From Nitrosopumilus sp. (GTDB lineage Archaea > Thermoproteota > Nitrososphaeria > Nitrososphaerales > Nitrosopumilaceae): 64,000 nt of DNA. This document shows, piece by piece, positions 4,361 through 27,325 of this stretch (the stretch's first letter is position 1; each line of letters starts with the position of its first letter). A model generated the notes under the pieces. That model searched no databases and had not been told where the DNA came from. It saw only the letters and a program-made list of their open reading frames with translations. The stretch lies in NCBI GenBank assembly GCA_965238275.1, contig OZ250186.1:832001-896000 (forward strand), given 5' to 3'. The translations under genes were made by a program, and so were the position numbers.

Positions 4361-5791
4361 TTGGAATTCAGAGAGGGGTTGACATTTGACGATGTTCTCC
4401 TAGTTCCCAAATACTCCAACATTACAAGCAGGAGCCAGACTGATCTGACCACCCGGCTGTCCCGCAACATCTCAATCAACATTCCGTTTGTAAGTGCAAA
4501 CATGGACACTGTCACCGAGTCCTCCATGGCAGTGGCCATGGCCCGGGCAGGCGGAATCGGCATCATACACAGGTTCCTGACGATAAGGGAGCAGACAGAC
4601 GAGGTCCTCAAGGTAAAGCGGTCAGGCAGCGTCATAATAGAGAACCCGTACCTGATATCCCAGGACAGATCCGTTCAGGATGCCATGAACTACGCAACAG
4701 AAAAGGATGTATCCGGACTGCTGGTGGTGGACTCTGAGTCCCGACTGGTCGGAATAATGACTGACAGGGATCTGCTGTTTGCCGATCCGCAGAACACCGT
4801 CATGGAGTGCATGACCAAGGACGTCATCTCTGCAAGACCCGGGGTGACCCTTGATGTCGCAAAGGAGATGCTGCACAGGCACAGGATCGAAAAGCTTCCC
4901 ATTATTGACGACTCTGGCAAGGTCATGGGGTTGATTACAAGCAAGGACATTACAAACATTGCAGACTTTCCAAACGCCTCCAAAGACGGCAAGGGCCGTC
5001 CGCTGGTGGGCGCAGCAGTGGGAGTCCGGGGGGACTTTCTGGAAAGAAGCGAGTCCCTGCTGGATGCGGGGGCAGACGTGCTTGTAGTGGACATAGCACA
5101 CGGCCACAGCGAAAACGCACTTAATGCAATCCGCAGCATCAAAAAGGCGTTCCCGGACGGAGAGCTGATTGCAGGAAATGTTGCAACCGCCAATGGCGCC
5201 CGGGATCTTATCCGGGCCGGAGTCGATGCCGTAAAGGTGGGGGTTGGTTCGGGCTCCATATGCATAACCCGCGTAATTACAGGCTCCGGCGTGCCGCAGC
5301 TTACTGCGGTAATGGACTGTGCACAGGTGGGGCGAGACGAGAACATCCCAATAATCTCAGACGGGGGCACGAGAAACTCCGGCGATGCCACCAAGGCACT
5401 GGCATCCGGTGCGTCATCAGTCATGGTGGGAAGCATGCTGGGAGGAACAGACGAATCTCCGGGTACCGTCCTGACAAAGAACGGAAAGCGCTTCAAGGTG
5501 TACCGCGGGATGGCCTCGCTTGCAGCATCCCTGGGACGCAAGTCAAAGGAGACCGGCCAGACATTCATCGACGACGAGATCAACGACTATGTGGCAGAGG
5601 GCGTCGAGGCGATGGTTCCATACAAGGGAACCGTAGTAGACATACTCAAGCAGCTTACAGGCGGGGTGCGCTCCGGCCTGAGCTACTGCGGGGCACACAC
5701 CATACTCCAGATGCAGGCAAATGCCGAGTTCATCAAGATGTCACGGGCCGGATTTGCAGAAAGCCAGCCGCACGATGTCTCACTGATGTGA
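4361..5791 (+). CDS. guaB: inosine-5'-monophosphate dehydrogenase with CBS domains
   Basis: LTFDDVLLVP, SANMDTVTE, catalytic GSGSICITR, YRGMAS, EGVE motifs. Confidence 0.97.
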   Translation: MEFREGLTFDDVLLVPKYSNITSRSQTDLTTRLSRNISINIPFVSANMDTVTESSMAVAMARAGGIGIIHRFLTIREQTDEVLKVKRSGSVIIENPYLISQDRSVQDAMNYATEKDVSGLLVVDSESRLVGIMTDRDLLFADPQNTVMECMTKDVISARPGVTLDVAKEMLHRHRIEKLPIIDDSGKVMGLITSKDITNIADFPNASKDGKGRPLVGAAVGVRGDFLERSESLLDAGADVLVVDIAHGHSENALNAIRSIKKAFPDGELIAGNVATANGARDLIRAGVDAVKVGVGSGSICITRVITGSGVPQLTAVMDCAQVGRDENIPIISDGGTRNSGDATKALASGASSVMVGSMLGGTDESPGTVLTKNGKRFKVYRGMASLAASLGRKSKETGQTFIDDEINDYVAEGVEAMVPYKGTVVDILKQLTGGVRSGLSYCGAHTILQMQANAEFIKMSRAGFAESQPHDVSLM

Positions 5792-6065
5792 GATCCTGCA
5801 GGCAAGGATTTTGCGTATGCAGGTTTGGTATGGTGTTGCCTGCCACATTGGGCATAAAGACTCAGATGCACGTACGGACTTGAGAATGTGACCGATGAAA
5901 TACGGTACCGCCAAGATCCTTAATTTTAAAAAAACGTGGTCAACACTGCCTGTCCGTATTGCTTCCAGACCGGCATTGAATACATCATGCAAATTCGTGT
6001 CTGGATGGATAACGCGCATGACGCTGTTTTTTAATATTTTTATACATCCGATGCCGTATACTGTC

Positions 6066-6317
6066 ATGCCACAGGTCAGTACCGCTGATGACATAGAACG
6101 AGAATCAAGGCGGGTCATAGGTGCATTGTACGGCGATGTCAGCGACTTTCGGGTCAACGCAACGTTTCAGATTCCGGAGAAGGGGCCACGGGAGGCATGG
6201 GACGTGCAGGTAAACTTTATGCTCAACTCCCTAAAGTATACCGTCGATCTTGAGATGCAGGAAAAGGACGGCCAAGTAACCAATGCCAGACTAATCGACA
6301 CCATGACACCTCTCTAA
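6066..6317 (+). CDS. conserved hypothetical protein
   Basis: ORF MPQVSTADDIERES... with a TATA-like tttttata upstream; start reassigned. Confidence 0.6.
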   Translation: MPQVSTADDIERESRRVIGALYGDVSDFRVNATFQIPEKGPREAWDVQVNFMLNSLKYTVDLEMQEKDGQVTNARLIDTMTPL

Positions 6318-6336
6318 TTTTTAAAATCTCTCAAGC

Positions 6337-6861
6337 CTATACTGTCAAAATCTTCTTTGCTTCCTTGATCCTTCCAAGCAGGCTGTTGATGTAGGTGTCT
6401 GCAAACCGCTCAAACGTTACATATTCGTTGGCCCTGTCCAAGCTCTTCTGCTTTTTGTACTCTGCTTGCAGCCATTCAAAATCGGACTCCTTGAGGCTGA
6501 TGGCGCAGTTCTGGGAGTCAAACTTTGACTCTATCACGTTGGCGATGAAATAGCTGACAAACTTTGTAAAGCACTTTACCCTGTACTTCTCATAATACTC
6601 CTCCCCAAGCTCCGTATGGTTTGCCTCCAGCCACTGTTGTATATCCGACCTGATGGTCATGGTGTTGTATCGTCCCGAGAGATCAAGCCTGATCCTGTGC
6701 GGCTCCACAGAGTAGTAGCCGCGCCTTACCTCATTCATCATGATGATCAGCGTGCTTGGAAGAAACATTCCGGGATAATTCTTGTCTGTTACATCCTGCA
6801 GTTTTGCAATGATCGCAGGCTTCAGGCCCACGGTGGCATAGCCTTTTCCGGGCATACCCAA
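6337..6861 (-). CDS. hypothetical protein, possible DNA-binding
   Basis: 174-aa ORF with normal composition, MPGKGYATVGLKP start. Confidence 0.6.
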   Translation of the reverse strand: MGMPGKGYATVGLKPAIIAKLQDVTDKNYPGMFLPSTLIIMMNEVRRGYYSVEPHRIRLDLSGRYNTMTIRSDIQQWLEANHTELGEEYYEKYRVKCFTKFVSYFIANVIESKFDSQNCAISLKESDFEWLQAEYKKQKSLDRANEYVTFERFADTYINSLLGRIKEAKKILTV

Positions 6862-7003
6862 TAGACTGGTCTGATGCTTATATCATTTTCAGATTCCCAT
6901 ACGTATCTGTCCTTGCCAATCCAAATGTGACGTCGCATCCTGTTCGGGTATCGCTCCCCGGCACCATCCATGCTTCTGATTCTGCACCGCAGACGGTTCC
7001 GTA

Positions 7004-7168
7004 CTACTTTTTCTTGAACTCCTTTATCAGCCGGATTGCCACCCACACCGTTCCCATTATCATGGTTCCGACGCCAAGGCCGCTATAGAACGGATCTTCT
7101 CCACCGGTCTGGCTCAGGCCGATCCCCAGTATGATCAAAATGACTGCAAACGCATACTGCTTGTCCAT
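7004..7168 (-). CDS. small two-TM membrane protein (54 aa)
   Basis: Manual translation MDKQYAFAVILIILGIGLSQTGGEDPFYSGLGVGTMIMGTVWVAIRLIKEFKKK*, preceded by GGGAG; below the ORF track cutoff. Confidence 0.6.
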   Translation of the reverse strand: MDKQYAFAVILIILGIGLSQTGGEDPFYSGLGVGTMIMGTVWVAIRLIKEFKKK

Positions 7169-7447
7169 GTCTCCCTTGGGGCTGATGAACTAATAAGATT
7201 TTGAAGGCGTTGCGGTACCTGGTCCATGTCGGCCCCGGAATGGGATTTCTGACCATCGGCGATCCGTCATCTGCCCGCAGAATACCGGTTCCCGGATTTG
7301 ATCCGTTTGTGCATCAAAAACGCACAAAAACTCAAAAATCACACAGTTTTTCTAAGAAAATGTACTATACGCATTATTTTTACACACTAAAACGTATTAT
7401 ACCTGAAAATTTCAATATTTATATAATTTCACGTGTATATCTAATGG

Positions 7448-9034
7448 ATGGCAGAGGTTGACGGATTTGGTGCTGCAATTATCGTATTCATCATAATCAC
7501 GCTTGTAGTGGGCGTCCTTGCAGGCAGGCTGGTAAAAAAGAGCGGCAAGAGGCTGATAATTGCAGGCAAGAGTCTGCCGCTGGTCATGGTAGGAACAATG
7601 CTTGCAGCACAGGCAGTGGACGGAAACTCGTCACTGGGAAACATCTCGCTGGTCTTTCAGTTCGGATTCTGGGCCGGGGCCGTCGTTCCGATAGGTTTGG
7701 GAGTGTGCCTGCTGGTGGTTGCCGCATTCTATGCCAAGCCGCTAAACAAGATGTCGATGATCACCCTGCCTGACTTTTACTACAGAAGATTCGGAAACGG
7801 GGCCGAGGGGATATCCGGCGTGCTCATGATTCTCAGTTTTATCATTCTTGTGGCAGGAAATCTGGCTGCCAGCGGGTTCATTCTAGAGGTCGTATTTGGA
7901 ATAGACTATTTCTGGGGCGTGTTGATCTCATCTTTGGTAGTCGTGGCATATACTATAGCCGGGGGACTGTTTGCCTCTGCATACACGAACCTCTTCCAGG
8001 TGTATCTTGCAATAGGCTCGTTCTGGGCAGCATTCCTGTTCTTTGGCGGCGGCTTTTCAGAGGTGCCGTGGGACGTCATATACAACAACGCTCCGCCGGA
8101 GTTCTTGGATCTCTCGGGACTGTATGATATCGCCAACGGGGCCCTGATCAACTGGGGTGCCATACTTGCACTGGGACTTGGAGACATCATCGCACTTGAC
8201 TTCATGGAGAGGGTGTTCTCTGCCAAGAATCCAAAGACTGCAAGGAGGGGCGCCCTCATGGGAGGCGCACTGACACTCTTTACAGTTATTCCTACCAGCA
8301 TGCTGGGAATCGTGGCATTCTACTATCTTCCCGGAGACACACTGCCTGACTTGGCCCTGCCACTGCTTGCCACGGAGTTCATGCCGTTTGCCATAGGGGC
8401 CTCCATACTGATGGGGGTGATCGGGGCATCCATGTCCACTGCAAGCGGGGGGCTGCTGGCCATATCAAGCGTGGTTTCTCGGAACCTGCTACAGAGGATA
8501 ATCCGGCGCAGGTGGCTGGGCAAGCAGGCCTGGAGCGACGGCAAGCTGCTTGTAACCACGCGGATTGTCATTGCCCCCATGATGATAGCCGGCGCCACCC
8601 TGGCATACTTTGTACCGGCACCGGGGGTCTTTCTCGTGCTGGCATTTGATATCGTCTTTGCCGGAGCCTTGGCGCCTCTCACATTCGGACTGTTCTGGAA
8701 GAAGGCAAACATGCCTGCAGCCATTACCTCCCTGCTTGTAGGATCATTCCTGCGGCTGGCGTTCTTCTTCGTAATTCCACTAGAGTACGACGGAATAGGC
8801 TCAATGATACCGCCTGCAGTCTCGTTTGTACTGTTTATAGTGGTCGCACTTGCAACCCAGAACAGGTATCCAGGAAAGGCAAGGCACGACATAAGGGACT
8901 ATGTTCCGCCCGAGGAGGATATCATTGCCGGCGAGGATCTCAAGCACTTTCAGGAGAGCGACGAGTCGCTGTCCGGCGTACAGAACACAGACACGTCGGG
9001 GCCGGACTCTGGCATGGCGCACAAGAACACCTGA
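7448..9034 (+). CDS. sodium:solute symporter (SSS/SLC5 family)
   Basis: About 13 TM segments; ITLPDFYYRRFG, YTIAGGLFASAYTN, ASMSTASG motifs; TTTATATA box at about 7418. Confidence 0.9.
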   Translation: MAEVDGFGAAIIVFIIITLVVGVLAGRLVKKSGKRLIIAGKSLPLVMVGTMLAAQAVDGNSSLGNISLVFQFGFWAGAVVPIGLGVCLLVVAAFYAKPLNKMSMITLPDFYYRRFGNGAEGISGVLMILSFIILVAGNLAASGFILEVVFGIDYFWGVLISSLVVVAYTIAGGLFASAYTNLFQVYLAIGSFWAAFLFFGGGFSEVPWDVIYNNAPPEFLDLSGLYDIANGALINWGAILALGLGDIIALDFMERVFSAKNPKTARRGALMGGALTLFTVIPTSMLGIVAFYYLPGDTLPDLALPLLATEFMPFAIGASILMGVIGASMSTASGGLLAISSVVSRNLLQRIIRRRWLGKQAWSDGKLLVTTRIVIAPMMIAGATLAYFVPAPGVFLVLAFDIVFAGALAPLTFGLFWKKANMPAAITSLLVGSFLRLAFFFVIPLEYDGIGSMIPPAVSFVLFIVVALATQNRYPGKARHDIRDYVPPEEDIIAGEDLKHFQESDESLSGVQNTDTSGPDSGMAHKNT

Positions 9035-9085
9035 GTCCCTCCCTCCCTCCGTATGTTTTAATATTTTATCGATGATGTGGAATAG

Positions 9086-10777
9086 ATGAAGTATCCTGAC
9101 TTGTTGCCTGCGGACCTTGCACGCGTGGGAACCGCAGAATCAAGAAAGCTCAACCTCATAGTGGGCCGGCTGGTAACTGATGCCGTAAAGACGTCTTTGG
9201 GGCCCAGGGGGATGGAGAAGATCTTCACTGACATCATCGGCGAGGACACCATAACCAAGCACGGCGGCGCGTTTCTGCGAAAAGTCGACGTCGAGCATCC
9301 CGTGGCCAAGGCGATAGTGGAAGGCGTCAACACGGTGGATACGCACGTGGGGGACGGAACAGTCTCTGCTGCAATCCTGATAGGCTCCCTGCTCAAAAAG
9401 GCCGACGGGATGCTCGGGATGGGACTGCAGCCTGCCACAATCATCAGGGGGTATGAGCGGGGGCTGGATCTCGCACTGGAGACGCTTGACGAGGTAAAGA
9501 TGGCCCGGGATGCCTCGGACAGACATGTCCTGGAGCAGCTTGCAGCCTCGTGTCTTGACGGAAAGGCCATAACCAGCCTGGTCTCTGATGCACAGAGACT
9601 CCGGCAGATGATAGTTGATGCATGTTGCCATGTGGCCGATCTTCAGAACGGCTCCATTGATGTTGATGACATCAAGATAGAAGAAAAGCTTGGAAACGCA
9701 AACGACATACAGCTGGTCCGGGGAACCGTGATTGACAAGACCATTGACAATGCGGCAATGCCACGGTGCGTTACTGATGCCAGGATACTGCTCCTCAACG
9801 AGCCGCTTGAGACGATGCGCACCAAGACTGACGATGCCATTGAGATAGACTCCCCGGAGCAGATGTCGCGCTTTCTTGAACAGGAGGTCATCGACGTGCG
9901 CAATATGGTACAGAAGATTATTGGTTGCGGGGCCGGCGTGGTCGTGTCCCGAAAGGGGATAAACGACATTGCACAGGAGTGCCTTGCACAGGCCGGAATA
10001 ATCTCGATAAGAAGGGCCAAGTATAATGATCTCTGGTGGCTTGAAAAGGCCACGGGAGCCTCCGTCTGCAAGAGTCTTGATGCAGTGTCCTCCTCGGAAC
10101 TGGGATATGCGCAGAAGGTGCATGAGAGGGTGGTCGGCGACGAGAGGATGGTATTTGTCGAGGGCTGCAGGAACCCGCGCTCGGTGACCATCCTGCTGCG
10201 TTCAAACTCCAAGAGGTATCTTGACGAGTTCCACCGCAGCGCCCTTAACGCGCTGTTCGTACTGAGGGACTTTATCCAGACCCCGTACGTGGTGCCCGGA
10301 TGCGGCTCCATCGAGGCGGTGCTGGCAGACAGGATCAAGGAGCGATCAGTCGGCATAGGGGACAGGAGCCAGATTGCAGTTGCAATGTTTGCAGACGCCC
10401 TGGAGGAGATCCCGCTGACCCTGGCAAGAAACGTCGGCATGGATCCGCTTGACACCCTGGCTGCCCTCAGATCCCACTATGGGGATTCCCACGGCAGATC
10501 CAGATGGTACGGCATAGACTCGGAGAGGAGGTCAGTCTCTGAGATGCCTGGCACGGGGGTGATAGAGCCCCTTGTGGTCAAACAGCAGGTGCTAAAGACT
10601 GCAGCAGAGGTGTCTGCGATGATCCTCAACGTTGATGACATATTCATGAAGGACGAGATTGACAACACGCACTGCCACATAGACGGAACGGTCCATGCGC
10701 ACCATGACGGCGGGAAGGCGCACAACCACTTTGAGCAGGAGGGGTTGGAGCAGAGGCAGATGCACCACTACTACTAG
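9086..10777 (+). CDS. divergent group II chaperonin (thermosome/TCP-1 family) with His-rich C-terminal tail
   Basis: KTSLGPRGMEK, VGDGT, IEPLVVKQQVLKTAAE, ILNVDD; tail THCHIDGTVHAHHDGGKAHNHFEQEGLEQRQMHHYY. Confidence 0.88.
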   Translation: MKYPDLLPADLARVGTAESRKLNLIVGRLVTDAVKTSLGPRGMEKIFTDIIGEDTITKHGGAFLRKVDVEHPVAKAIVEGVNTVDTHVGDGTVSAAILIGSLLKKADGMLGMGLQPATIIRGYERGLDLALETLDEVKMARDASDRHVLEQLAASCLDGKAITSLVSDAQRLRQMIVDACCHVADLQNGSIDVDDIKIEEKLGNANDIQLVRGTVIDKTIDNAAMPRCVTDARILLLNEPLETMRTKTDDAIEIDSPEQMSRFLEQEVIDVRNMVQKIIGCGAGVVVSRKGINDIAQECLAQAGIISIRRAKYNDLWWLEKATGASVCKSLDAVSSSELGYAQKVHERVVGDERMVFVEGCRNPRSVTILLRSNSKRYLDEFHRSALNALFVLRDFIQTPYVVPGCGSIEAVLADRIKERSVGIGDRSQIAVAMFADALEEIPLTLARNVGMDPLDTLAALRSHYGDSHGRSRWYGIDSERRSVSEMPGTGVIEPLVVKQQVLKTAAEVSAMILNVDDIFMKDEIDNTHCHIDGTVHAHHDGGKAHNHFEQEGLEQRQMHHYY

Positions 10778-10808
10778 TACCGTTACATGTCCGCCGCATC
10801 ATGCCATG

Positions 10809-11558
10809 CTAGAGGATGCTGCCTGGAGTAAGTACGCCGTAGATTATGTGCGCCCCTATCGCAAGGCTGAACGCACCTGCCAGATACCTGGCAATCCTCT
10901 GTACGGATCCCGCCCTTGAGGTAAGGGCAAGCGGCAGGCCGATCAGGTTGCTTATCAGGGTCATGCCGATTATGGAGCCGAGTCCGAATATGAGGATGAA
11001 GCTGATCACCATTCCTGCGCTGTCCAGCGTGACTGCAGTCAGGACGACCAGGCTGCCGCTGCCTGCAAGCCCGTGGATCAGCCCTATGATGTACGACTTG
11101 TGGCTGTGCCTGTGATCCGTGTGACTGTGCTCATGAACATGGAATGTTCCGTCATCGTGCCTGTGGGGGTGCCTGTGCCTGAGGCTGAAGAGCCTCCTCC
11201 TGTCCAGTATCGTGACTGCCCCCAGTACGACAAGCATGACCCCCACTGCCGCCTCAAGGCCGGTAAAGACGTTATCCTGAATCTGTATTGCAAGGACGTA
11301 CACCAGCAGCCCCATTATGATCAAAGTCGTCGTGTGTCCTGCGCCCCACAGTATCCCGATTACTGATGACCTGGCTATCCCTTTCCGGATGACATCCCTG
11401 ATCCGCCCACCACCACCACCACCACCTGTTCTGGCCCCGGACACCCTGGTGGCCACTGCTGCGACATGGTCGGATTCGAACGCGTGCTCCAGTCCTATGG
11501 CAAGCCCCAACCCCAGTGCAAGCAGGGGACTGAAATCAAACAGGTTCTCCAGGGTCAT
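10809..11558 (-). CDS. nickel/cobalt transporter-like membrane protein (NiCoT/UreH-like)
   Basis: HAFESDH (HX4DH) motif, WGAGHT, His-rich loop HRHPHRHDDGTFHVHEHSHTDHRHSH, IHGLAGSG. Confidence 0.85.
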   Translation of the reverse strand: MTLENLFDFSPLLALGLGLAIGLEHAFESDHVAAVATRVSGARTGGGGGGGRIRDVIRKGIARSSVIGILWGAGHTTTLIIMGLLVYVLAIQIQDNVFTGLEAAVGVMLVVLGAVTILDRRRLFSLRHRHPHRHDDGTFHVHEHSHTDHRHSHKSYIIGLIHGLAGSGSLVVLTAVTLDSAGMVISFILIFGLGSIIGMTLISNLIGLPLALTSRAGSVQRIARYLAGAFSLAIGAHIIYGVLTPGSIL

Positions 11559-11661
11559 GGCACACCAGAACCTGCCTGCCTTGTGTAAATATTACCCATG
11601 CCGGTAATTCCCGTGCATGTGCACGCCGGTACTACTGCCCTGGCTCGAAAACCCGGACACA

Positions 11662-12033
11662 CTATGATCCCCTCAGGACATACCTGCTGATTCTTATCGG
11701 GGAGTCAAGGACCAGCACCGTCTCTGAACTACCAGATGCCATGCGGAATACAAGCCTTCTCATGCTCTCCGGAACGCCGATCATGACATTGTCAGGTGAG
11801 ATGAGATCGCATACCTGCTCCCCTATGTCATCTGCACTCGCTCCTGCTGCGATCTGCCTCATGACGTATGCTGCCATTGCCATGACTGCCTCGTTTATGT
11901 TGATGCGTATGCCTCCCTGAATCTTCCTGTTGATGGCCTTTGCCGACTCTATCACCACATCCCGGTCGTACCCTGAAAAGATGATCATTGGCTGCGTGTC
12001 CGGATCGCCTTGAACCTCTGCGCTGAACCTCAT
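11662..12033 (-). CDS. urease gamma subunit-like protein (orphan)
   Basis: GIRININEAV, VMIGVPES and LDSPI align by eye with UreA GLKLNYPEA, VMEGVPEM and VHNPI; ATGA overlap with the upstream gene. Confidence 0.7.
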   Translation of the reverse strand: MRFSAEVQGDPDTQPMIIFSGYDRDVVIESAKAINRKIQGGIRININEAVMAMAAYVMRQIAAGASADDIGEQVCDLISPDNVMIGVPESMRRLVFRMASGSSETVLVLDSPIRISRYVLRGS

Positions 12034-13148
12034 TGCCTGTCCGGAATCTTTGCACGCGGGCCGTCACTGAAGTGGTATGTGTTGCCCGTTCCCCTGTAGT
12101 CGTTGGGCCTTACAGGACTTCCTTCCTTCAGCCCCCTCTTTGTCAGGGAGAGGCCTGCAAGCAGCTCGACTATGAGCCTCTGGCCAAGTCCGGATGTTAT
12201 TCCTCCGTTGTACGAACTGTTGTCGCTGACATCATACGCAGGTGCGACTTCCACCAGATCCATGGCAAACCTGTCCGGATCAAATGATTTTGAGAGGAGC
12301 CTTACCATCCTCATTCCTTCCCTGGATGTCAGGCCGTTGGGTTCAGGCTCGCCGGTACCCGGGGCGTATGCCGGATCAAACGAGTCAATGTCCCAGCTAA
12401 GATACACTGCGTCGGTTCCGTCATTGGCCCTGTCTGCAATCTCCTTTGCAATCATGTCGATTCCAAGCTCCTCTACGTCCAGCATGGTAAACCACTGAAA
12501 GTCCTGGTCAGACATCCACTTGTACAGGTCCGGTCCCGGCCAGTATCCGCGGGGACCTACCAGGGTGTAGTTCTTTCCCTTCATGCAGCCCATCTCCATT
12601 ATCCGCCGGATGTGCGCGCCATGATCGTACTTGTAGCCTGTGAGCCCCTGCGGTGCGCAGTCTGCGTGGGTATCAAAATGAATCATGCCAATGTTTTTGT
12701 ATTTTTTTGCAAACGCCCTGACATTGGCATATGTAATCGAGTGATCTCCTCCAAGCATTACCGGTATGCCCTCCTCGTCGAGCACCTCCTTGACCTTTTT
12801 TGTCATGCGCTTGTGCGACTCTATGACATCTCCGGGGGAGACATGGACGTCCCCGTAATCCACTGTCCTGAACGTTCCAAACGGATCCGCGCCTGTCTCG
12901 ATGTTGAACCTCTCGTACGGGGGGGACGGAATCGTTGATGCGGCGCGAAGTGCCCTCGGGCCGTACCTTGCCCCGGGACGGATCGTGGTCCCAAAATCAA
13001 ACGGTTCGCCAATAACGGCAACGTCAGGCTTTGCCTGCTTTAGCTCCTCGTGCGTTCTTATCCATGGCAGGTGCAAAAACGTATTGATGCCGACAAACGG
13101 CGCAACATCGGCACCCCTGTAATCATCACCATAAAACTCCATGCCCAT
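12030..13148 (-). CDS. ureohydrolase (agmatinase/guanidinobutyrase family)
   Basis: RPGARYGP, GGDHS, DTHAD, DIDSFDPAYAPGTG, DLVEVAP: all binuclear metal ligands present. Confidence 0.93.
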   Translation of the reverse strand: MGMEFYGDDYRGADVAPFVGINTFLHLPWIRTHEELKQAKPDVAVIGEPFDFGTTIRPGARYGPRALRAASTIPSPPYERFNIETGADPFGTFRTVDYGDVHVSPGDVIESHKRMTKKVKEVLDEEGIPVMLGGDHSITYANVRAFAKKYKNIGMIHFDTHADCAPQGLTGYKYDHGAHIRRIMEMGCMKGKNYTLVGPRGYWPGPDLYKWMSDQDFQWFTMLDVEELGIDMIAKEIADRANDGTDAVYLSWDIDSFDPAYAPGTGEPEPNGLTSREGMRMVRLLSKSFDPDRFAMDLVEVAPAYDVSDNSSYNGGITSGLGQRLIVELLAGLSLTKRGLKEGSPVRPNDYRGTGNTYHFSDGPRAKIPDRQ

Positions 13149-13297
13149 AACACCCAATCGGTAAATTTGATAATTAAGGATTCTAGGTAAACTACGTATG
13201 CTGTATCATTGCTGATTCATGCGGCGTGGTGGGAGGAATTCCGGAATATGTAATGTACGATTTAACTATAAAAATAATATCTGCCAAAATAACATTG

Positions 13298-14533
13298 ATG
13301 ATAGGTGCCTCCAAGAGTTCGACTGACTACATGAACGAGGGCCTGACTGCCGTATACTATAACGAGTTCAAAAAGGCCGTATCAAAGTTTGACCGGGCAG
13401 TCTCAATTGATCCGGAAAATATCGTGGCGCAGCTTCACAAGGGCATTACGCTTGGCAGGATTGGCCGTCACAAGGATGCCGTGGCATGCTTTGATGCAGT
13501 GCTTGATGCCGATCCCAAGAATCTTGATGCGCTGTACAACCGCGGCCTGTACCTGGGGAGAATGGGGAAGTACGAGGATGCCATACGCTGTCTTGCCGAA
13601 TCCCTCCAAGTCGATCCAGGATTCCTGGACTCCCTGACTGAGACCGGGGCGTGCCTTGGCAGGATGGGAAGAAACACGGAGGCCCTGGAGATGATTGAGC
13701 GTGCGCTGTATATCGATCCGAAATACTCTGCTGCATTATACAACAAGAGCCTGATTCTGGGACGGCTGGGCAGGAAGGCTGAGGCAATGTCACTCCTGCA
13801 GGACGCGATCGAGGAGGATTCCAGACAGTCTGATGCAGTCTATCGGGAGGGACAGAAGCTTACCCGGGAGGGAAAGCACGAGGAGGCGATAAGACTGTAC
13901 ACCCGCGCCCTGGAGATTGACGACAAGAATACCAGGGCACTGGTCGCAAAGGGATGGACTCTTGACTTTGCAGGGTTCTCAAACAAGGACGTATTCGTAT
14001 TCTATGACAAGGCGCTGGAGGCAGACCCGCATTGCACCGATGCCTGGCTGTACAAGGGACTGGTGCTGGACAGGACGGGCATGTATAAGAGGGCAGTCGA
14101 GTGCTTTGATCGCATCTTGGAGTATGATCCGCAAAACATCCGGGCGCTTTACAGCAAGGGCATATCGCTCTTCTCGCTCAAACGCTTTGGGGCTGCGCGG
14201 TTCTACTGCGAGTGCGCCCTGGACGTGGATCCCAAGAACATCCGGGCCGTATGCAGCATGGTGTGGCTTTTGGAGCATGCAAAAAAATACAACGAGGCGC
14301 TGGCCTACTGCGAGCAGGCGCTGAAGATCAATCCGGACTATGTCTATGCCGTAAGCTACAAGGGAAAGTTGCTCATGCTGCTCAAGCGGTACGCCGAGTC
14401 CCTGGAGTGGTACGACAAGACACTGGCCCTTGCGCCTGACAACCAGACTGCAATATACCACAGGAACATGGTTGTTGATGCAATCGAGAAGGCCAAGAGG
14501 GATTCTGCACCCAGAAGGTTCCCAAGACTATAA
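13298..14533 (+). CDS. TPR repeat protein
   Basis: About 11 34-aa repeats of type A...KG..L...GR..EA...FD.AL..DP.N. Confidence 0.9.
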   Translation: MIGASKSSTDYMNEGLTAVYYNEFKKAVSKFDRAVSIDPENIVAQLHKGITLGRIGRHKDAVACFDAVLDADPKNLDALYNRGLYLGRMGKYEDAIRCLAESLQVDPGFLDSLTETGACLGRMGRNTEALEMIERALYIDPKYSAALYNKSLILGRLGRKAEAMSLLQDAIEEDSRQSDAVYREGQKLTREGKHEEAIRLYTRALEIDDKNTRALVAKGWTLDFAGFSNKDVFVFYDKALEADPHCTDAWLYKGLVLDRTGMYKRAVECFDRILEYDPQNIRALYSKGISLFSLKRFGAARFYCECALDVDPKNIRAVCSMVWLLEHAKKYNEALAYCEQALKINPDYVYAVSYKGKLLMLLKRYAESLEWYDKTLALAPDNQTAIYHRNMVVDAIEKAKRDSAPRRFPRL

Positions 14534-14616
14534 ACTTCTGCACGGTGCGGATACATGACTCGCCCGGATAACGCCAATGAGACTTTAAATTATAATTCTT
14601 GCAGCTGACTTCGAAA

Positions 14617-14770
14617 TTGGATGTCTTTGATGCTATCGCATTAGCCATTCATGCAAACAATGATCAAGTTACCGGCAAGACAACAACGATGCAGAAGTTG
14701 ATTTATTTTCGTACCAGAATGATTAAAGATTTGGAGACTTAATTATGCCAACCGTTTCTATGGCATTTTA
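14617..14770 (+). pseudogene. degraded Panacea/SocA (DUF4065/YwgA)-like antitoxin fragment
   Basis: Translation from TTG 14617 ...VTGKTTTMQKLIYF... stops at 14740; YANRFYG-like text follows; AT-rich. Confidence 0.35.
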
Positions 14771-15194
14771 TATTTTGGATGACTAAAGATCCGCGCAGGG
14801 TCCAATATTTCCCAGATGGCATCAAGGAGACTGCCCGGTGTTGGTTGAAAGGCCTCTTCTGATGGCGCACCAAAGATTTACACTGGTTGAGAGCCCCAAC
14901 CTTGCCACCTTCCAGCATGCGTCTCGGATTCAAGACCATAAGGGCTTTCCCCTTTGTGGTTTTATTGGCATTTCTGCATTGGAAACCAAAACAACCGATA
15001 CTGAAATTTTAAGGGCTTTAATCCATCAATCTTTCCAATTCCTGATACTCTCACATAACCCAAAATGATCACCGCGTACATCCAAACCCGGGATATTCCT
15101 GCCCGATACACACGCCGCGTGCCGGCCCAATCCGTCACGCCGGACCGGATCCGTCTCCGCTAATCTTTTAAACTGTATTCTGACCAGTTGAATC

Positions 15195-20100: not shown

Positions 20101-21897
20101 CCACCTCACCAGTCTGAAATCCACTATCTGAACACCCCGTTGTTTGGTATCAAACGTGACGCCGTGTCTGATAATGCAACCACTCCAAATCAGATTCTGC
20201 CCTTCCTTGACAAGTTCACCGTAGTCGACATAACTCCGCCCAGACTTATCATCGCAATCAAGTCTCTCCCTGACACAGTTGACCTGTACTTACTTGAGGA
20301 TGTTGTCAGCGTGAATGCCACCTCTGGGGACTTTGCAGTGGAGTACGGCAATATCCCAATCCCAGCATCCAAAATCGAAACCTTCGGCGATCACATCAGG
20401 TTGACGTTCACTACTCCCCTGCCTGATGATATACCCAGCGTCGACCCGTACATCACCTATACCCGGACACTCGGAACCATAGAGGACCTTTCAGGAAACA
20501 TTTTTGAAGACATTGAAGATGAATACTTTCCTTTGTATCCAGTTGAATCCGTCACATTTGTTAATGCGGAGCCAGTATCTGTTGGTGGCGAGCCAGTAAT
20601 AGCAGCACAACAACAACAGAGCTTGGATGACAATGAAGAGGACGACGTACAGAACGACGGCGTCAACCGCGAGAACGGCAACGGCATCGACGGCATCGAC
20701 GGCATCGACGGCATCGACGGCAACGGGGACGGCGGTAGCAGCGGCAACGGGGACGGCGGTAGCAGCGGCAACGGGGACGGCGGTAGCAGCGGCAACGGGG
20801 ACGGCGGTAGCAGCGGCAACGGGGACGGCGGTAGCAGCGGCAACGGGGACGGCGGTAGCAGCGGCAACGGGGACGGCGGTAGCAGCGGCAACGGGGACGG
20901 CGGTAGCAGCGGCAACGGGGACGGCGGTAGCAGCGGCAACGGGGACGGCGGTAGCAGCGGCAACGGGGACGGCGGTAGCAGCGGCAACGGCGGCAACGGC
21001 AACCCGGGCTCATCCGGAATCATCTCCAGTAACAATCACAGATCCAGCTCGAGCGGCGGCAGCAACGATCCCCCGGTCTTGGATCTTAACGCGCTGCGCG
21101 ATTCCCAATTTAACATAGATATCCCGTATGCATTACTGCAAATCGTCCATGACCCTGATTGGCGCACGCCCATATCCCCGATTGTCGTCAACTGCACGTT
21201 TGACTACCCCGTGACGATAAACGGCCTAGGGTATCCGCTGGCAGGTCTGTCCAACACGCTTGACTCGCAGGAAGTTGTGGCCGACCAGCCGACCAGCATC
21301 GACTTTGTCCTATACGACTACAACACAATTGCCCACTTTACCCTCTACATGAACCTGCATGATACGGACATACACTACTTCAACAGCGACACGTTCATCA
21401 GGCTTGACAACGGCAACCTTCAGGTGACGGATCCTAACGGCTGGCTTGCAAACGTCACTGTGACGCAGGAGACAGACGAGAAATACTCGTTCAAGACCAA
21501 TGTCAACTTCCTTGTCACGTTTAATGAGACAATGGGAAACACCAATCTGGTGGCCAGAACATGGGACAGTCGGTCCTCCACCACACTGGCACACATGATA
21601 GATGCAATCACGGTAATACCTGCAGCCAACGCCACTGCAACGCCGATTCCGGCAGACCCCTTAGTTCCCGCACCCGACCCGGGAACTTCCGAGGCCGACA
21701 TGCTGTTGGCCATCCGCATGTGGGCAGGATTTGACTCCACGCCTGCAACCGATGCCGAACTGCTTGAGGCGCTGAACCTGCCGCAGGACGGAGAAATCCC
21801 GTCATGGGTAAAGCCAAACCTGGGCAGAATGGTCTCACTGGGCGATATCACAGTTGCCGAGTTCGTAACCGCGGTGTCGTGCCTGCTCGGGGTCTGA
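17158..21897 (+). CDS. large secreted/surface protein with about 9-10 Ig-like repeats, Gly-rich linker and thaumarchaeal C-terminal domain
   Basis: Signal peptide; repeats TFDE...Y.K.HIRDSG..TGGI...PQLDIDAGAVSD.SGN; C-terminus IPSWVK...GDITVAEFVTAV. Confidence 0.85.
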   Translation: MLNRAWILLPILTASVLIAGYDAAYGLLPPAPSSTTYTTHNGMLVIEFSEPVTMIDYSKIHIRSGDTGITLADVVVKTNDTDTITATFNPNQKATFETMILPRLAVDHAAVLGQIDTPILEGRHIITIHDTKPPGFVSAVYNATDKQVRITFDERIIKPVDRTKLHLRESGNSTGGITLTSTNIVHYHGDTLIVNLKSPQNATFGGFDMPQLDIDAGAVSDESGNLIAVAPDQRIDTDDAIAPSVESVKYDTNLRLLLITFDEPVAELAYSKMHIRDSGNSTGGITLSYIGPRHHIANTVSVLLDTPKTATFHEMSAPQLDVDPGAVSDFSGNGIAAAQNDITIAISDTVRPVFESARYSTSDSVLSITFSENVTVGGSQRLYIHDINYNHTNGISLGTDDLSFALGNVVNATLNSSHIDAIDSMHAPRLHIPQGTVYDGLGNGIAPAADLEIIIDDAAPPALVHVEYSTDDDKVYLTFNMPVDNPNHSKLRIHDSGTILGSIQFNNTIFVRTEGDTMTAYLHDAQEKAIESMAAPQLDIDAAAVSDAADALNTIRPAANLTISIPDTIPPELASATYTTGDGTLTVTFDEPISLLNYAKMHIRDLSTSSSGISLADVVSIRHTAGTDTVTATLDSLQRTAFETMESHILRIDESAAYDTAAAYDMSANAIRAKILLINVLDTTPPAFVSSTYDAVLNMTTVTFDERIIEPVDYTKLHIRDSGSDTGGITLIDVSPKVHRINSLSVTLNASQNDAFGNLTAPQLDIDAGAVSDESDNSIAATTDRPIIQDNRTLPLVVSVEYDTNLEMLSITFDEPVHTPDYSGLRIRDSGIHTGGIQFDEIPRRHQAGTMMHVILNASLVGEFNAMSEPRLAIDQDAVRDYSDNEITGTIKIPITINDTTRPSVEYAAYKMKHVEEPKITSAVYHPGFGNMTLMFNEPVTEPDLADLYVRDYVHYVSLNMSHDMSRQDPITNQSITVWFDPPHQSEIHYLNTPLFGIKRDAVSDNATTPNQILPFLDKFTVVDITPPRLIIAIKSLPDTVDLYLLEDVVSVNATSGDFAVEYGNIPIPASKIETFGDHIRLTFTTPLPDDIPSVDPYITYTRTLGTIEDLSGNIFEDIEDEYFPLYPVESVTFVNAEPVSVGGEPVIAAQQQQSLDDNEEDDVQNDGVNRENGNGIDGIDGIDGIDGNGDGGSSGNGDGGSSGNGDGGSSGNGDGGSSGNGDGGSSGNGDGGSSGNGDGGSSGNGDGGSSGNGDGGSSGNGDGGSSGNGDGGSSGNGGNGNPGSSGIISSNNHRSSSSGGSNDPPVLDLNALRDSQFNIDIPYALLQIVHDPDWRTPISPIVVNCTFDYPVTINGLGYPLAGLSNTLDSQEVVADQPTSIDFVLYDYNTIAHFTLYMNLHDTDIHYFNSDTFIRLDNGNLQVTDPNGWLANVTVTQETDEKYSFKTNVNFLVTFNETMGNTNLVARTWDSRSSTTLAHMIDAITVIPAANATATPIPADPLVPAPDPGTSEADMLLAIRMWAGFDSTPATDAELLEALNLPQDGEIPSWVKPNLGRMVSLGDITVAEFVTAVSCLLGV
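20683..20982 (+). repeat. in-frame tandem repeats: (GGCATCGAC)x4 then (GGCAACGGGGACGGCGGTAGCAGC)x11
   Basis: 9-bp unit 20683-20718; perfect 24-bp unit 20719-20982 encoding GNGDGGSS. Confidence 0.97.
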
Positions 21898-25925: not shown

Positions 25926-27248
25926 ATGGAAATTCTGCACATCGGGTTTGACGATACCGACTCCCCCGAGGGAATGTGCACCACGTTTCTTGCCTACAAG
26001 ACGGCAGGCATGCTGCTCAAACAAGGGGACGTGTTTTTGGACTTTCCAAGGCTCGTTCGCTTCAATCCCAACATACCGTGGAAGACCCGGGGAAACGGGG
26101 CAGTCTCGATGAAGATCTCCACTGACAATCCCGACCGTGCCAAGGAACTGGTGCGGGATGTCGTGACCCAATACTCTGACACTGCCAACGGGGCCAACCC
26201 CGGGCTGGTGTTTGTCGAGGGAGACGAGATCCCGCCGGAATTTGCAGACCTTGGCCGCCTGGCGCTGTGGCAGCTTGTCAGCCGGGGCAGCGCAAGACGA
26301 CTGGTTCAAAGGAACAAACTTGACTACCTTTCCCTAGGGAACGGCCAGGGGTTGGTTGGCGCGATAGGCGCGATAGGGTACGAGTTTGGAGACTGCACGC
26401 TAGAACTTTTGGCATACCGCGCAAGAGGAATGCTGGGACAAAAGAGAAGAATATCTGCCAGCAGCGTCAAGGCCATGCAGGAAGAGACGTTTCCAGACAC
26501 CTTTGGCAGCGTTGACGACGCAAGCGGGCGCGTGCTGATAGCGCCGCACGGATCCGATCCCGTATTCTACGGGATTCGTGGGGAACGAGCCGACCGGCTG
26601 GTGCTGGCAGCAGGAATGCTTGAAAGTGACGAGCGGCCAGTCGGCCACATGATATTCAAGTCAAACCAGGGCACGGGCGACCATCTCCGGCATGACCTGG
26701 ATGAAAGCACCATGACACCCTACACTTCCGGAAGAATCACCGGAACCGTGTCTGTCCGGCCGCGGATCATGCGCGGCGGGCACGTCGTGTTTGGCGTAAA
26801 ATCAAACGGAGTTGAATTCGGATGCGCAGTATACCGTCCCACGGGATTCTCCACTGCGGCCTCGCACCTGATGCCCGGCGACAGGGTGTGCGCGGGCGGC
26901 GGCATAAGGCGCGCATCACCAAACCATCCCAGGACGATCAGCTTGGAGTTCCTTGATGTGCAGGGCCTTCAGACCGACGTTGTCCCCTCAAACCCCCGGT
27001 GCCCGAAGTGCTCCAAGAGGATGAAATCCAAGGGACGCGGGCAGGGGTTCAAGTGCGTCCGTTGCGGCACGACATCGGAGCGGAAGGAGGATGCCGTCAT
27101 GCCCCGATTGGTTCGATGCCAGACGTACACGCCTGTAGCATCTGCCCGGAGGCACCTTACCCGCCCTCCGGAGCGGATTGGAAGATGCAATACTGCTCCA
27201 TTTGACGGATCGGTTTCGTGGTTTTATAGTAATAATAGCGGGGAGTAG
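25926..27248 (+). CDS. tiaS: tRNA(Ile2) agmatinylcytidine synthase
   Basis: IGFDDTDS..GMCTT, RLVRFNPNIPWKTRGNGA, SNQGTGDHL, Zn ribbon, RRHLTRP. Confidence 0.95.
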   Translation: MEILHIGFDDTDSPEGMCTTFLAYKTAGMLLKQGDVFLDFPRLVRFNPNIPWKTRGNGAVSMKISTDNPDRAKELVRDVVTQYSDTANGANPGLVFVEGDEIPPEFADLGRLALWQLVSRGSARRLVQRNKLDYLSLGNGQGLVGAIGAIGYEFGDCTLELLAYRARGMLGQKRRISASSVKAMQEETFPDTFGSVDDASGRVLIAPHGSDPVFYGIRGERADRLVLAAGMLESDERPVGHMIFKSNQGTGDHLRHDLDESTMTPYTSGRITGTVSVRPRIMRGGHVVFGVKSNGVEFGCAVYRPTGFSTAASHLMPGDRVCAGGGIRRASPNHPRTISLEFLDVQGLQTDVVPSNPRCPKCSKRMKSKGRGQGFKCVRCGTTSERKEDAVMPRLVRCQTYTPVASARRHLTRPPERIGRCNTAPFDGSVSWFYSNNSGE

Positions 27249-27325
27249 ATTTGAACTACTGATTTGCGGGTTATGAGCCCGCCGGGATGACTTAGCCCTG
27301 ATGAGTCTGACTTCCCCACCCCGCT
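27236..27325 (-). tRNA. tRNA-iMet(CAT) with a 15-nt non-canonical D-loop intron (27292-27306)
   Basis: AGCGGGG acceptor with A1-U72; GCGGG-CTCATAA-CCCGC anticodon arm; 90 nt minus 15-nt intron gives 75 nt; BHB motif present. Confidence 0.9.

Follow-up and report, generated by a model that had tools for sequence, protein, structure and literature searches.

We report that a 64,000-nucleotide window of the Nitrosopumilus sp. genome G000 (2.2 Mb in a single contig; OZ250186.1, positions 832,001 to 896,000) carries linked genes for an arginase-family hydrolase, a sodium:solute symporter (SSS), a group II chaperonin with a histidine-rich tail, a urease gamma (UreA)-like protein and an HX4DH membrane protein. 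Judged by sequence comparison across 401 genomes of the order, G000 included, these genes form a genuine and widespread module that accompanies archaeal ureolysis and had gone unrecognised. The observations that carry this are the linkage of the genes, their nesting in urease-positive genomes, and the folds and motifs of their products; what makes the module unusual is a His-tailed chaperonin of its own, together with an accessory protein derived from UreA.

With moderate confidence we propose that an imported guanidino compound is converted to urea by a hydrolase that is matured by the dedicated chaperonin, with the UreA-like protein as an accessory, and that the HX4DH protein supplies nickel or cobalt. 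Specifically, the symporter would import an external guanidino (amidino) compound, the distinct arginase-family hydrolase would cleave it and free urea, and the cell's own urease would convert the urea to ammonia for ammonia oxidation. Maturation of the hydrolase would involve the dedicated group II chaperonin, the His/Cys tail of which would bind the metal and hand it over while the enzyme folds; in family f4, where no chaperonin was found, a similar His-rich tail fused to the hydrolase would take its place. The small UreA-derived protein, presumably co-translated with the hydrolase, would work as an accessory or adaptor, and the HX4DH permease would provide nickel (or cobalt) to both hydrolase and urease. 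A more specific version is possible but doubtful: the chaperonin tail takes nickel from the permease loop that carries the same motif, and folds and metallates a nickel ureohydrolase with the help of the UreA-derived adaptor, and ureolytic ammonia-oxidising archaea (AOA) gain energy and nitrogen from a guanidine-type compound.

The nitrogen substrates of AOA are an open question for the global nitrogen cycle, with urea and cyanate being accepted. The module is a concrete and testable candidate for use of a further substrate, since it is common, tied to urease and equipped with its own transporter. If our proposal is correct, ureolytic AOA from marine, sponge and soil habitats, which make up roughly one in four of the genomes sampled in the order, use a substrate that is not yet counted in archaeal nitrification, and a new route of metalloenzyme maturation exists. 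The chaperonin would also be the first case met in our literature search of a thermosome paralogue that serves one enzyme and has a tail for binding metal, and the gamma-like protein would extend the urease gamma fold to a new role; the system would also bear on metal acquisition by non-manganese arginase-family enzymes. Our full-text literature search brought up no account of these genes as one system, and current annotation masks it under the names 'agmatinase', 'thermosome' and 'urease subunit gamma'.

Distribution of the module and its tie to urease

Orthologues of the hydrolase (74-94% identity, any other match being ≤37%) were identified in 108 of the 401 genomes. Apart from G000 the carriers belong to the window's own family (f1; 33 of 112 genomes), f4 (4 of 9) and f15 (70 of 111), and none was found in the other 17 families (0 of 168); the f15 tallies include the unpublished carrier G290 and are one fewer without it. 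The best 80 of 241 related loci include Nitrosopumilus, Nitrosarchaeum, Nitrosotenuis, Cenarchaeum and Nitrosopelagicus metagenome-assembled genomes (MAGs). The urease gene ureC was found in 154 of the 401 genomes and accompanies the hydrolase in all f1 and f4 carriers (33 of 33 and 4 of 4) and in 61 of the 70 f15 carriers. The hydrolase is absent from all 63 ureC-negative f1 genomes, and 16 f1 genomes have ureC and no hydrolase.

The surroundings of the hydrolase gene were mapped in 26 related loci, for each of which at most 20 kb was fetched. The gene set recurs in all 26; the order and orientation of the genes vary but the linkage holds. Urease genes fall inside the fetched sequence in 15 of the 26 loci. 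Specifically, in the four f4 loci the hydrolase (UH), the gamma-like gene, the permease and the urease genes form a single co-directional string, UH-(gamma)-permease-ureABC(EFGD), and in some loci the urease operon sits between parts of the module. The sole urease operon of G000 is complete and is located approximately 620 kb from the module (G000:C1:216-222 kb). Because a canonical urease is present and 15 of 26 loci lie beside or inside the urease operon, the module is an add-on to ureolysis.

To follow the individual genes we used a fixed set of 42 carriers (33 f1, 4 f4 and 5 f15) and 31 controls of our own choice, comprising 16 ureC-positive and hydrolase-negative f1 genomes, 10 near-complete ureC-negative f1 genomes and 5 ureC-positive and hydrolase-negative f15 genomes. 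An orthologue of the symporter (50-83% identity) is present in 41 of the 42 carriers, the gamma-like gene (at least 69 bits and directly downstream of the hydrolase gene) in 37, and the chaperonin (44-68% identity, exactly one per genome) in 36, compared with none of the 31 non-carriers for any of the three. The permease was detected in 31 carriers and also in 8 non-carriers (plus one broken copy); five of these eight have it beside urease and two are urease-free genomes (2 of the 10 urease-negative).

An earlier note on this DNA had proposed synteny of the five genes as a test. It is passed strongly by the hydrolase, symporter, chaperonin and gamma-like genes, which are linked across three families and absent from the 31 negatives, but the permease is not exclusive to them. 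It accompanies the hydrolase in the 31 carriers just counted, yet its position beside urease in negatives goes some way towards the alternative that the note itself had raised, namely that the transporter serves a canonical urease. The description of the gamma homologue as an orphan has to be abandoned, given the canonical urease elsewhere in the genome and the position of the module beside or inside the urease operon in more than half of the mapped loci.

Two further observations concern the history of the module. In two f1 genera (loci L039 and L040, genomes G135 and G301) the hydrolase is of the f15 type by its N-terminus and its grouping in the tree, and no permease is present, which points to transfer of the module between families. 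In two hydrolase-negative genomes remnants of the gamma-like gene lie beside the permease gene and the urease operon (G408:C2:54569-54706 and G250:C6:3716-3910), which suggests that the hydrolase was secondarily lost there.

A chaperonin paralogue with a histidine-rich tail

The chaperonin is the third thermosome-type protein of G000, which also encodes two canonical thermosomes with 39-41% identity to it. It passes the NCBIfam cut-off for NF041082 (thermosome_alpha; 497.8 vs 450) and misses that for TIGR02339 (485.2 vs 671.1), and the GDGT motif is kept in 22 of 23 chaperonin sequences (SDGT in L043). Its last 45 residues include nine His and one Cys, compared with GGM tails and no His in the two canonical proteins. 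The motif H-x-H-x-D/N-G-x-x-H-x-H is present in all 22 orthologous tails, and a search of all six reading frames of the genome (2.2 Mb) gave just two instances, one being the tail itself and the other the loop of the permease encoded next to it. In N. viennensis the transcript of an 'archaeal thermosome', the paralogue not being named in the text available, rises with the urease genes (PMC13674081).

The chaperonin was missed in six carriers: the whole of f4 (four genomes) and two f1 MAGs, both of them fragmented. No f4 chaperonin passed the 1e-150 threshold; a more divergent copy is possible, but none is present in the four f4 loci. The four f4 hydrolases are 40-60 residues longer than the others and have 10-11 His in their last 45 residues, versus 0-2 in the other 22 hydrolases. 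The main argument that the tail acts on the hydrolase is its location either on the chaperonin or, in f4, on the hydrolase itself. The same either/or pattern gives the strongest case, if an indirect one, that the metal is not manganese. That the chaperonin is a dedicated part of the hydrolase system is well supported by co-occurrence and linkage, and its tail most likely acts by binding the metal of the active site and passing it to the hydrolase as this folds.

A competing explanation accepts the module but takes the hydrolase to be a manganese enzyme and the chaperonin to be a foldase only, with the His tail and the HX4DH permease storing and supplying nickel for the neighbouring urease. A His/Cys-rich nickel-binding tail has a parallel in HspA, the GroES homologue of Helicobacter pylori. 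Mn2+ is the metal more commonly observed in the ureohydrolase family, according to PMC11399263; the permease does occur beside urease where the hydrolase is lacking, and in L029-L031, L035 and L039 urease genes are the immediate neighbours of the chaperonin gene. However, none of the 21 ureC-positive and hydrolase-negative genomes of the fixed set has the chaperonin, which implies that urease has no need of it; the f4 tail is on the hydrolase and not on a urease protein; and the urease operons have their own ureE/F/G/D. We therefore consider this explanation rather unlikely.

The hydrolase, its symporter and the candidate chemistry

Over 200 columns are invariant in an alignment of 27 hydrolase orthologues (74-93% identity), which are marked by the motif GTGEPEPNG and by a C-terminal extension of approximately 45 residues that is conserved across the clade. 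All six ligands of the binuclear metal site are kept (H139, D162, H164, D166, D256 and D258), also in nine of nine AOA orthologues aligned. The hydrolase does not reach the agmatinase cut-offs (TIGR01230, 159.1 vs 174.3; NF002564, 210.3 vs 302). Its nearest solved structures according to phmmer are GbuA (177.6 bits over residues 15-318), Synechocystis 7esr/7oi1 (170.2) and 9fek (169.4), of which 7OI1 is Synechocystis GdmH and 9FEK the guanidinase of N. inopinata (PMC11410670); metformin hydrolase A scored 119 bits. The hydrolase is roughly equidistant from GbuA and the guanidinases in this comparison, which is based on phmmer scores and one alignment.

The guanidinase signature consists of Thr105, His222, Trp313 and Glu344 in N. 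inopinata numbering (PMC11410670, figure legend). Mapped via the 9fek alignment, the first, second and fourth are kept in the module hydrolase as Thr58, His179 and Glu303, and Trp313 corresponds to Glu270, which is invariant in 27 of 27 orthologues. Trp was found at this position in none of the 131 sequences of the family alignment and in none of the best 150 representatives gathered for the family tree. Thr is the commonest residue at the site (70 of 131), and Glu is limited to the nine AOA orthologues, two haloarchaeal relatives and one other protein. The hydrolase does not match the signature, yet guanidine may still be a substrate. Urea is the expected product given the usual chemistry of the family and the tie to urease, and we infer a guanidino substrate and nickel as the metal.

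The symporter is below every NCBIfam equivalog cut-off and would import the substrate of the hydrolase. It had no tblastn similarity at 1e-5 to the three DUR3-type transporter genes at the urease locus of G000. That it is the urea transporter of urease was considered and rejected, since it is absent from all 21 ureC-positive and hydrolase-negative genomes and lacks similarity to DUR3-type transporters.

These data also bear on a housekeeping role, in which the hydrolase is a second agmatinase (SpeB) that converts internal agmatine to putrescine and urea, the symporter a low-affinity urea transporter and the gamma-like protein a urease subunit. The database names ('agmatinase family protein' and 'urease subunit gamma') agree with such a role, as does the frequent location beside urease. 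In PMC11131427 the SSS gene that accompanies 'agmatinase (SpeB)' in one soil clade is regarded as a urea transporter, and most AOA are stated to have two to three speB copies (PMC10753782). Nevertheless, we judge the housekeeping role to be improbable. The hydrolase is below both agmatinase cut-offs, and a separate SpeB-like paralogue (≤37% identity) is present in nearly every genome; in G000 it is encoded at C1:1832500-1833291 and is 30.5% identical to the hydrolase. Moreover, the symporter tracks the hydrolase and not urease, the gamma-like protein coexists with a canonical UreA to which it is only distantly related (see below), and an agmatinase would need no chaperonin of its own.

The urease gamma-like protein

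The gamma-like protein misses both NCBIfam UreA cut-offs (NF009712, 31 vs 123; TIGR00193, 29.1 vs 82.3) and is 20-22% identical to canonical UreA over the full UreA length, with the core motifs kept. Its AlphaFold model (pLDDT 88.4) matched only urease gamma chains, with target-normalised TM scores of 0.79-0.84 and a best E-value of 6e-6; the top 17 matches in the Protein Data Bank (PDB) are all urease gamma chains or gamma-containing fusions. The model has an extra N-terminal beta-hairpin relative to UreA. Compared with the window copies, and in the same loci, the gamma-like protein is 23-40% identical and canonical UreA 66-86%; the gamma-like alignment excludes the three high-GC loci L029, L043 and L044. 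A complex prediction for hydrolase and gamma-like protein gave a score of 0.00 against a mark of 0.32, and speaks neither for nor against contact.

Because it evolves fast and is missing from five carriers, the gamma-like protein is better seen as an accessory or adaptor than as an obligate structural subunit, and an accessory part in the hydrolase system is well supported by its distribution and predicted fold. That it is instead a bridge or alternative subunit, which docks the hydrolase on urease to channel urea or on the nickel-insertion complex UreD/F/G to borrow the maturation machinery, would suit the retained UreA fold and core motifs, the near restriction of the hydrolase to genomes with urease and the lack of available HypA/B, but is very improbable given those five absences and an evolution much faster than that of UreA.

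The HX4DH permease

In the 249-residue membrane protein, residues 25-31 read HAFESDH (HX4DH), and a 40-residue loop contains 12 His. HX4DH and a loop with 11-13 His per 40 residues are present in 20 of 21 permease orthologues, the 21st being a wrong open reading frame (ORF). No Pfam or NCBIfam match was obtained, PF03824 being absent up to E = 10. Its language-model neighbours (Atlas) are clusters named as Ni/Co transporters (0.96-0.98), with PF03824 on 33-65% of their members. A Ni/Co transporter of the NicO/UreH/NiCoT type is probable on these grounds, and its distribution leads us to regard the gene as serving Ni/Co uptake in general, with a frequent but not exclusive attachment to the module.

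Observations that weigh against the proposed function

Several observations count against the function that we propose. With respect to the hydrolase, the six metal ligands are identical in manganese and nickel members of the family and are thus silent on the metal, and the signature Trp of the guanidinases is replaced by Glu. What we propose for the activity, metal and binding of the module proteins is read from their sequences. Nine f15 MAGs have the hydrolase without detected ureC; all nine are fragmented (60-380 contigs). The NDGAT nucleotide-site motif is altered in the f1 chaperonins (KHGGA in the window copy), so that the chaperonin may or may not be an active ATPase.

The gamma-like gene is missing in 5 of 42 carriers, where no more than some 50-210 bp separate the hydrolase gene from that of the permease, and its product is 22-35% identical between genomes with hydrolases that are 74-93% identical, a poor fit to an obligate structural subunit. 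Likewise, the permease was not found in 11 of 42 carriers, including four of the five f15 genomes, and is present without the hydrolase in 8 of 31 genomes, in five of them beside urease. The window permease is closer to copies outside the module (51-60% identity) than to those that accompany the module within its own genus (41-45%), and it may serve urease or cobalt uptake instead of the hydrolase. Finally, a chaperonin is near the hydrolase in only one of three haloarchaeal loci (Haloarcula), where it is next to a formamidase gene.

Gene content of the window and the source genome

The features of the locus are listed in Table 1. ORF and Pfam analysis confirmed what the earlier note had read from the letters, i.e. 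a symporter and a His-tailed chaperonin on the forward strand and the hydrolase, gamma-like and HX4DH proteins on the reverse strand. Translational coupling was likewise borne out, the hydrolase stop and the gamma-like start overlapping in ATGA. The hydrolase ORF is listed as 12030-13157; its probable true start is the ATG at 13148, which matches the orthologues.

Table 1. Predicted features of the locus, with positions numbered from the first nucleotide of the window
Feature	Position	Strand	Remarks
P83, ~83 residues	6066..6317	+	Listed ORF starts at 5895; orthologues begin at the Met at 6066
P173, probable ribbon-helix-helix regulator	6337..6855	-	Divergent from the symporter gene
SSS-family sodium:solute symporter	7448..9034	+	PF00474 (SSF), 95.4 bits
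Third thermosome (group II chaperonin) paralogue	9086..10777	+	PF00118 (Cpn60_TCP1), 453.2 bits
Chaperonin His/Cys-rich C-terminal tail, 38 residues	10661..10774	+	Motif H-x-H-x-D/N-G-x-x-H-x-H
HX4DH membrane protein, 249 residues, probable Ni/Co permease	10809..11558	-	HX4DH and His-rich loop
Urease gamma (UreA)-like protein, 123 residues	11662..12033	-	PF00547, 28.7 bits (cut-off 23.9)
Arginase-family hydrolase (UH)	12030..13148	-	PF00491, 274.5 bits (cut-off 22)
TPR-repeat protein	13226..14533	+	TPR_1, 195 bits; divergent from the hydrolase gene

The note had also stated that the cluster has no ureB/ureC or HypA/HypB, and none was found in the window. In the whole of G000 no match reached the HypA cut-off, and among proteins of the cobW/HypB type the search gave UreG and a single weakly matching COG0523-like gene, with no others. 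As to the note's idea that nickel delivery or folding uses a dedicated chaperonin and a UreA scaffold, both components stand as well-supported parts of the system, and the delivery of nickel itself is still a conjecture.

Three genes outside the five were linked to the module to different degrees. P83 is present in 21 of the 26 mapped loci, with 64-87% identity within its family and 35-45% in a second family; the Atlas leads to clusters of 'PepSY domain-containing protein' (0.94), Pfam gave only a sub-threshold JAB match, and the protein is possibly PepSY-like. P173 is encoded beside the symporter gene in 22 of the 26 loci, in families f1 and f15. Its AlphaFold model (pLDDT 84) has two beta-alpha-alpha units, and the fold search returned no match at E ≤0.001; weak matches in the PDB are to tandem ribbon-helix-helix proteins (F-plasmid relaxosome chains, E 8.6e-3, and VirC2), from which we infer a DNA-binding regulator. 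Pfam searches at E up to 10 with the permease, P173 and P83 returned nothing beyond noise below the threshold. The TPR gene is linked in f1 only, where it adjoins the hydrolase gene in 16 of the 17 loci with flanks.

An RNA-family search of window positions 5000-15000 (E up to 1) gave no match and no known riboswitch. A promoter and terminator scan, of a bacterial type unsuited to archaea, returned 8 promoter-like sites (7.4 expected) and 8 terminator-like sites (6.7 expected). An RNA-library run labelled sponge metagenome (X20) yielded six contigs of 152-213 nucleotides on the P83, symporter, chaperonin and hydrolase genes, five of them at least 99% identical and one 95-99%; no contigs fell on the permease or gamma-like genes, although non-coverage by contigs proves nothing. 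This is a weak hint of expression, given by contigs only and with DNA carry-over being possible.

Strain variation is evident in two DNA runs (80% of sampled words), both of which have a 15-base deletion relative to the window at 11409 in the permease gene; one of them also has a TCCC insertion behind 9035, in the spacer between the symporter and chaperonin genes. Elsewhere in the window, ARAGORN reported at 27236-27325 (reverse strand) a tRNA to which it assigned no type and an anticodon of four bases (aagt), and which may be a misread intron-containing archaeal tRNA, and a perfect tandem repeat (24 bp, 11.4 copies) is located at 20718-20990, with a 9-bp repeat just ahead of it at 20681-20722. 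At the urease locus of G000 there is a tandem duplication of approximately 5.4 kb (G000:C1:208149-216112), each copy comprising a DUR3-type SSS gene for 664 amino acids (the copies being 100% identical) and a Cys-rich ORF that begins identically; beyond ureD there is another DUR3-type gene, the third, for 765 amino acids.

Relatives beyond ammonia-oxidising archaea

In a scan of 1.84 billion representatives the nearest full-length hydrolase cluster outside AOA is 50% identical, and all others are ≤46%. This nearest cluster is haloarchaeal (Natronorubrum and Natrarchaeobius) and forms the sister group in the tree (support 0.987). On pNG700 of Haloarcula marismortui the gene order is formamidase, cpn60/TCP-1, USP, APC permease, MPN protein, SSS, regulator and hydrolase, where the SSS is 36% identical to the window's symporter and the chaperonin, which has a short DGEHDHAH stretch near its end, is 27% identical to that of the window. 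The order in Halalkalicoccus jeotgali is SSS, regulator and hydrolase, and in Natronorubrum bangense the hydrolase gene comes after the urease operon. These arrangements suggest that the symporter-hydrolase pair is older or more mobile than the AOA, and outside AOA the link to a chaperonin is seen in the Haloarcula context alone. There (L047, 66453-76664) the fourth-type cpn60/TCP-1 gene directly follows the formamidase gene, 6 kb from the hydrolase homologue, and its product may serve the formamidase instead. The haloarchaeal MPN protein and PhoU/AbrB regulators were considered as equivalents of P83 and P173 and dropped, as no blastp similarity was detected at 1e-3.

Comparison with known systems

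Of the guanidinobutyrase GbuA and the guanidinopropionase GpuA of Pseudomonas aeruginosa (PDB 3nio/3nip), GbuA is the best-scoring solved relative of the hydrolase. It releases urea from a guanidino acid and is not known to have any of these accessory genes. At the position after the GTG motif GbuA has Thr whereas the module hydrolase has Glu, together with its conserved C-terminal extension. The SpeB agmatinase shares the fold family and gives the hydrolase its current database name, but the hydrolase scores below the equivalog cut-offs. The SpeB route is the only one treated in the accessible part of PMC6790972.

The characterised ureohydrolases GdmH (Sll1077), comammox guanidinase, MefH and DmgH belong to the same superfamily and have the six metal ligands in common with the module hydrolase. 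Thr, His and Glu of the guanidinase signature are kept, but two of the four signature residues do not distinguish guanidinases from GbuA-like enzymes, and Trp (W313 in N. inopinata) is Glu in the module. As described in the accessible part of PMC11399263, the nickel-dependent ureohydrolases (GdmH and metformin/dimethylguanidine hydrolase) require co-encoded nickel chaperones, one of which, HypB, is His-rich, and their genes are followed by a nickel uptake gene and then by genes for urea transport and metabolism. The module resembles the metformin operon in having co-encoded accessory proteins, a nickel uptake gene directly downstream and urea genes nearby (PMC11399263). Unlike those systems, it lacks HypA/HypB, in place of which there are a His-tailed thermosome paralogue and a UreA-like protein, and it lacks a second, paralogous ureohydrolase subunit. 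By the criteria of Palatinszky et al., guanidine-degradation genes were not found in AOA, and guanidine use was shown only for comammox bacteria (PMC11410670).

With respect to the other components, UreA has its fold and core motifs in common with the gamma-like protein, but it lacks the N-terminal beta-hairpin, and the gamma-like gene follows a ureohydrolase gene and is not part of a ureABC operon. The permease (~250 residues) is similar to NiCoT/NicO/UreH transporters in that its first membrane segment contains HX4DH and one of its loops is rich in His, but lacks a match to the family profiles. Canonical thermosomes differ from the module chaperonin in having GGM rather than a His-rich tail and in the NDGAT motif, which is changed in the latter; no description of such a His-rich tail on a thermosome was found in our literature search. 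His-rich nickel metallochaperones and chaperonin co-factors include HypB, UreE, SlyD and the Helicobacter pylori GroES homologue HspA, the last of which has a His/Cys-rich nickel-binding tail. These proteins and the module chaperonin are alike in having a His/Cys-rich terminus on a folding or maturation protein that is encoded beside a metalloenzyme, but in the module the carrier of this terminus is a full group II chaperonin subunit.

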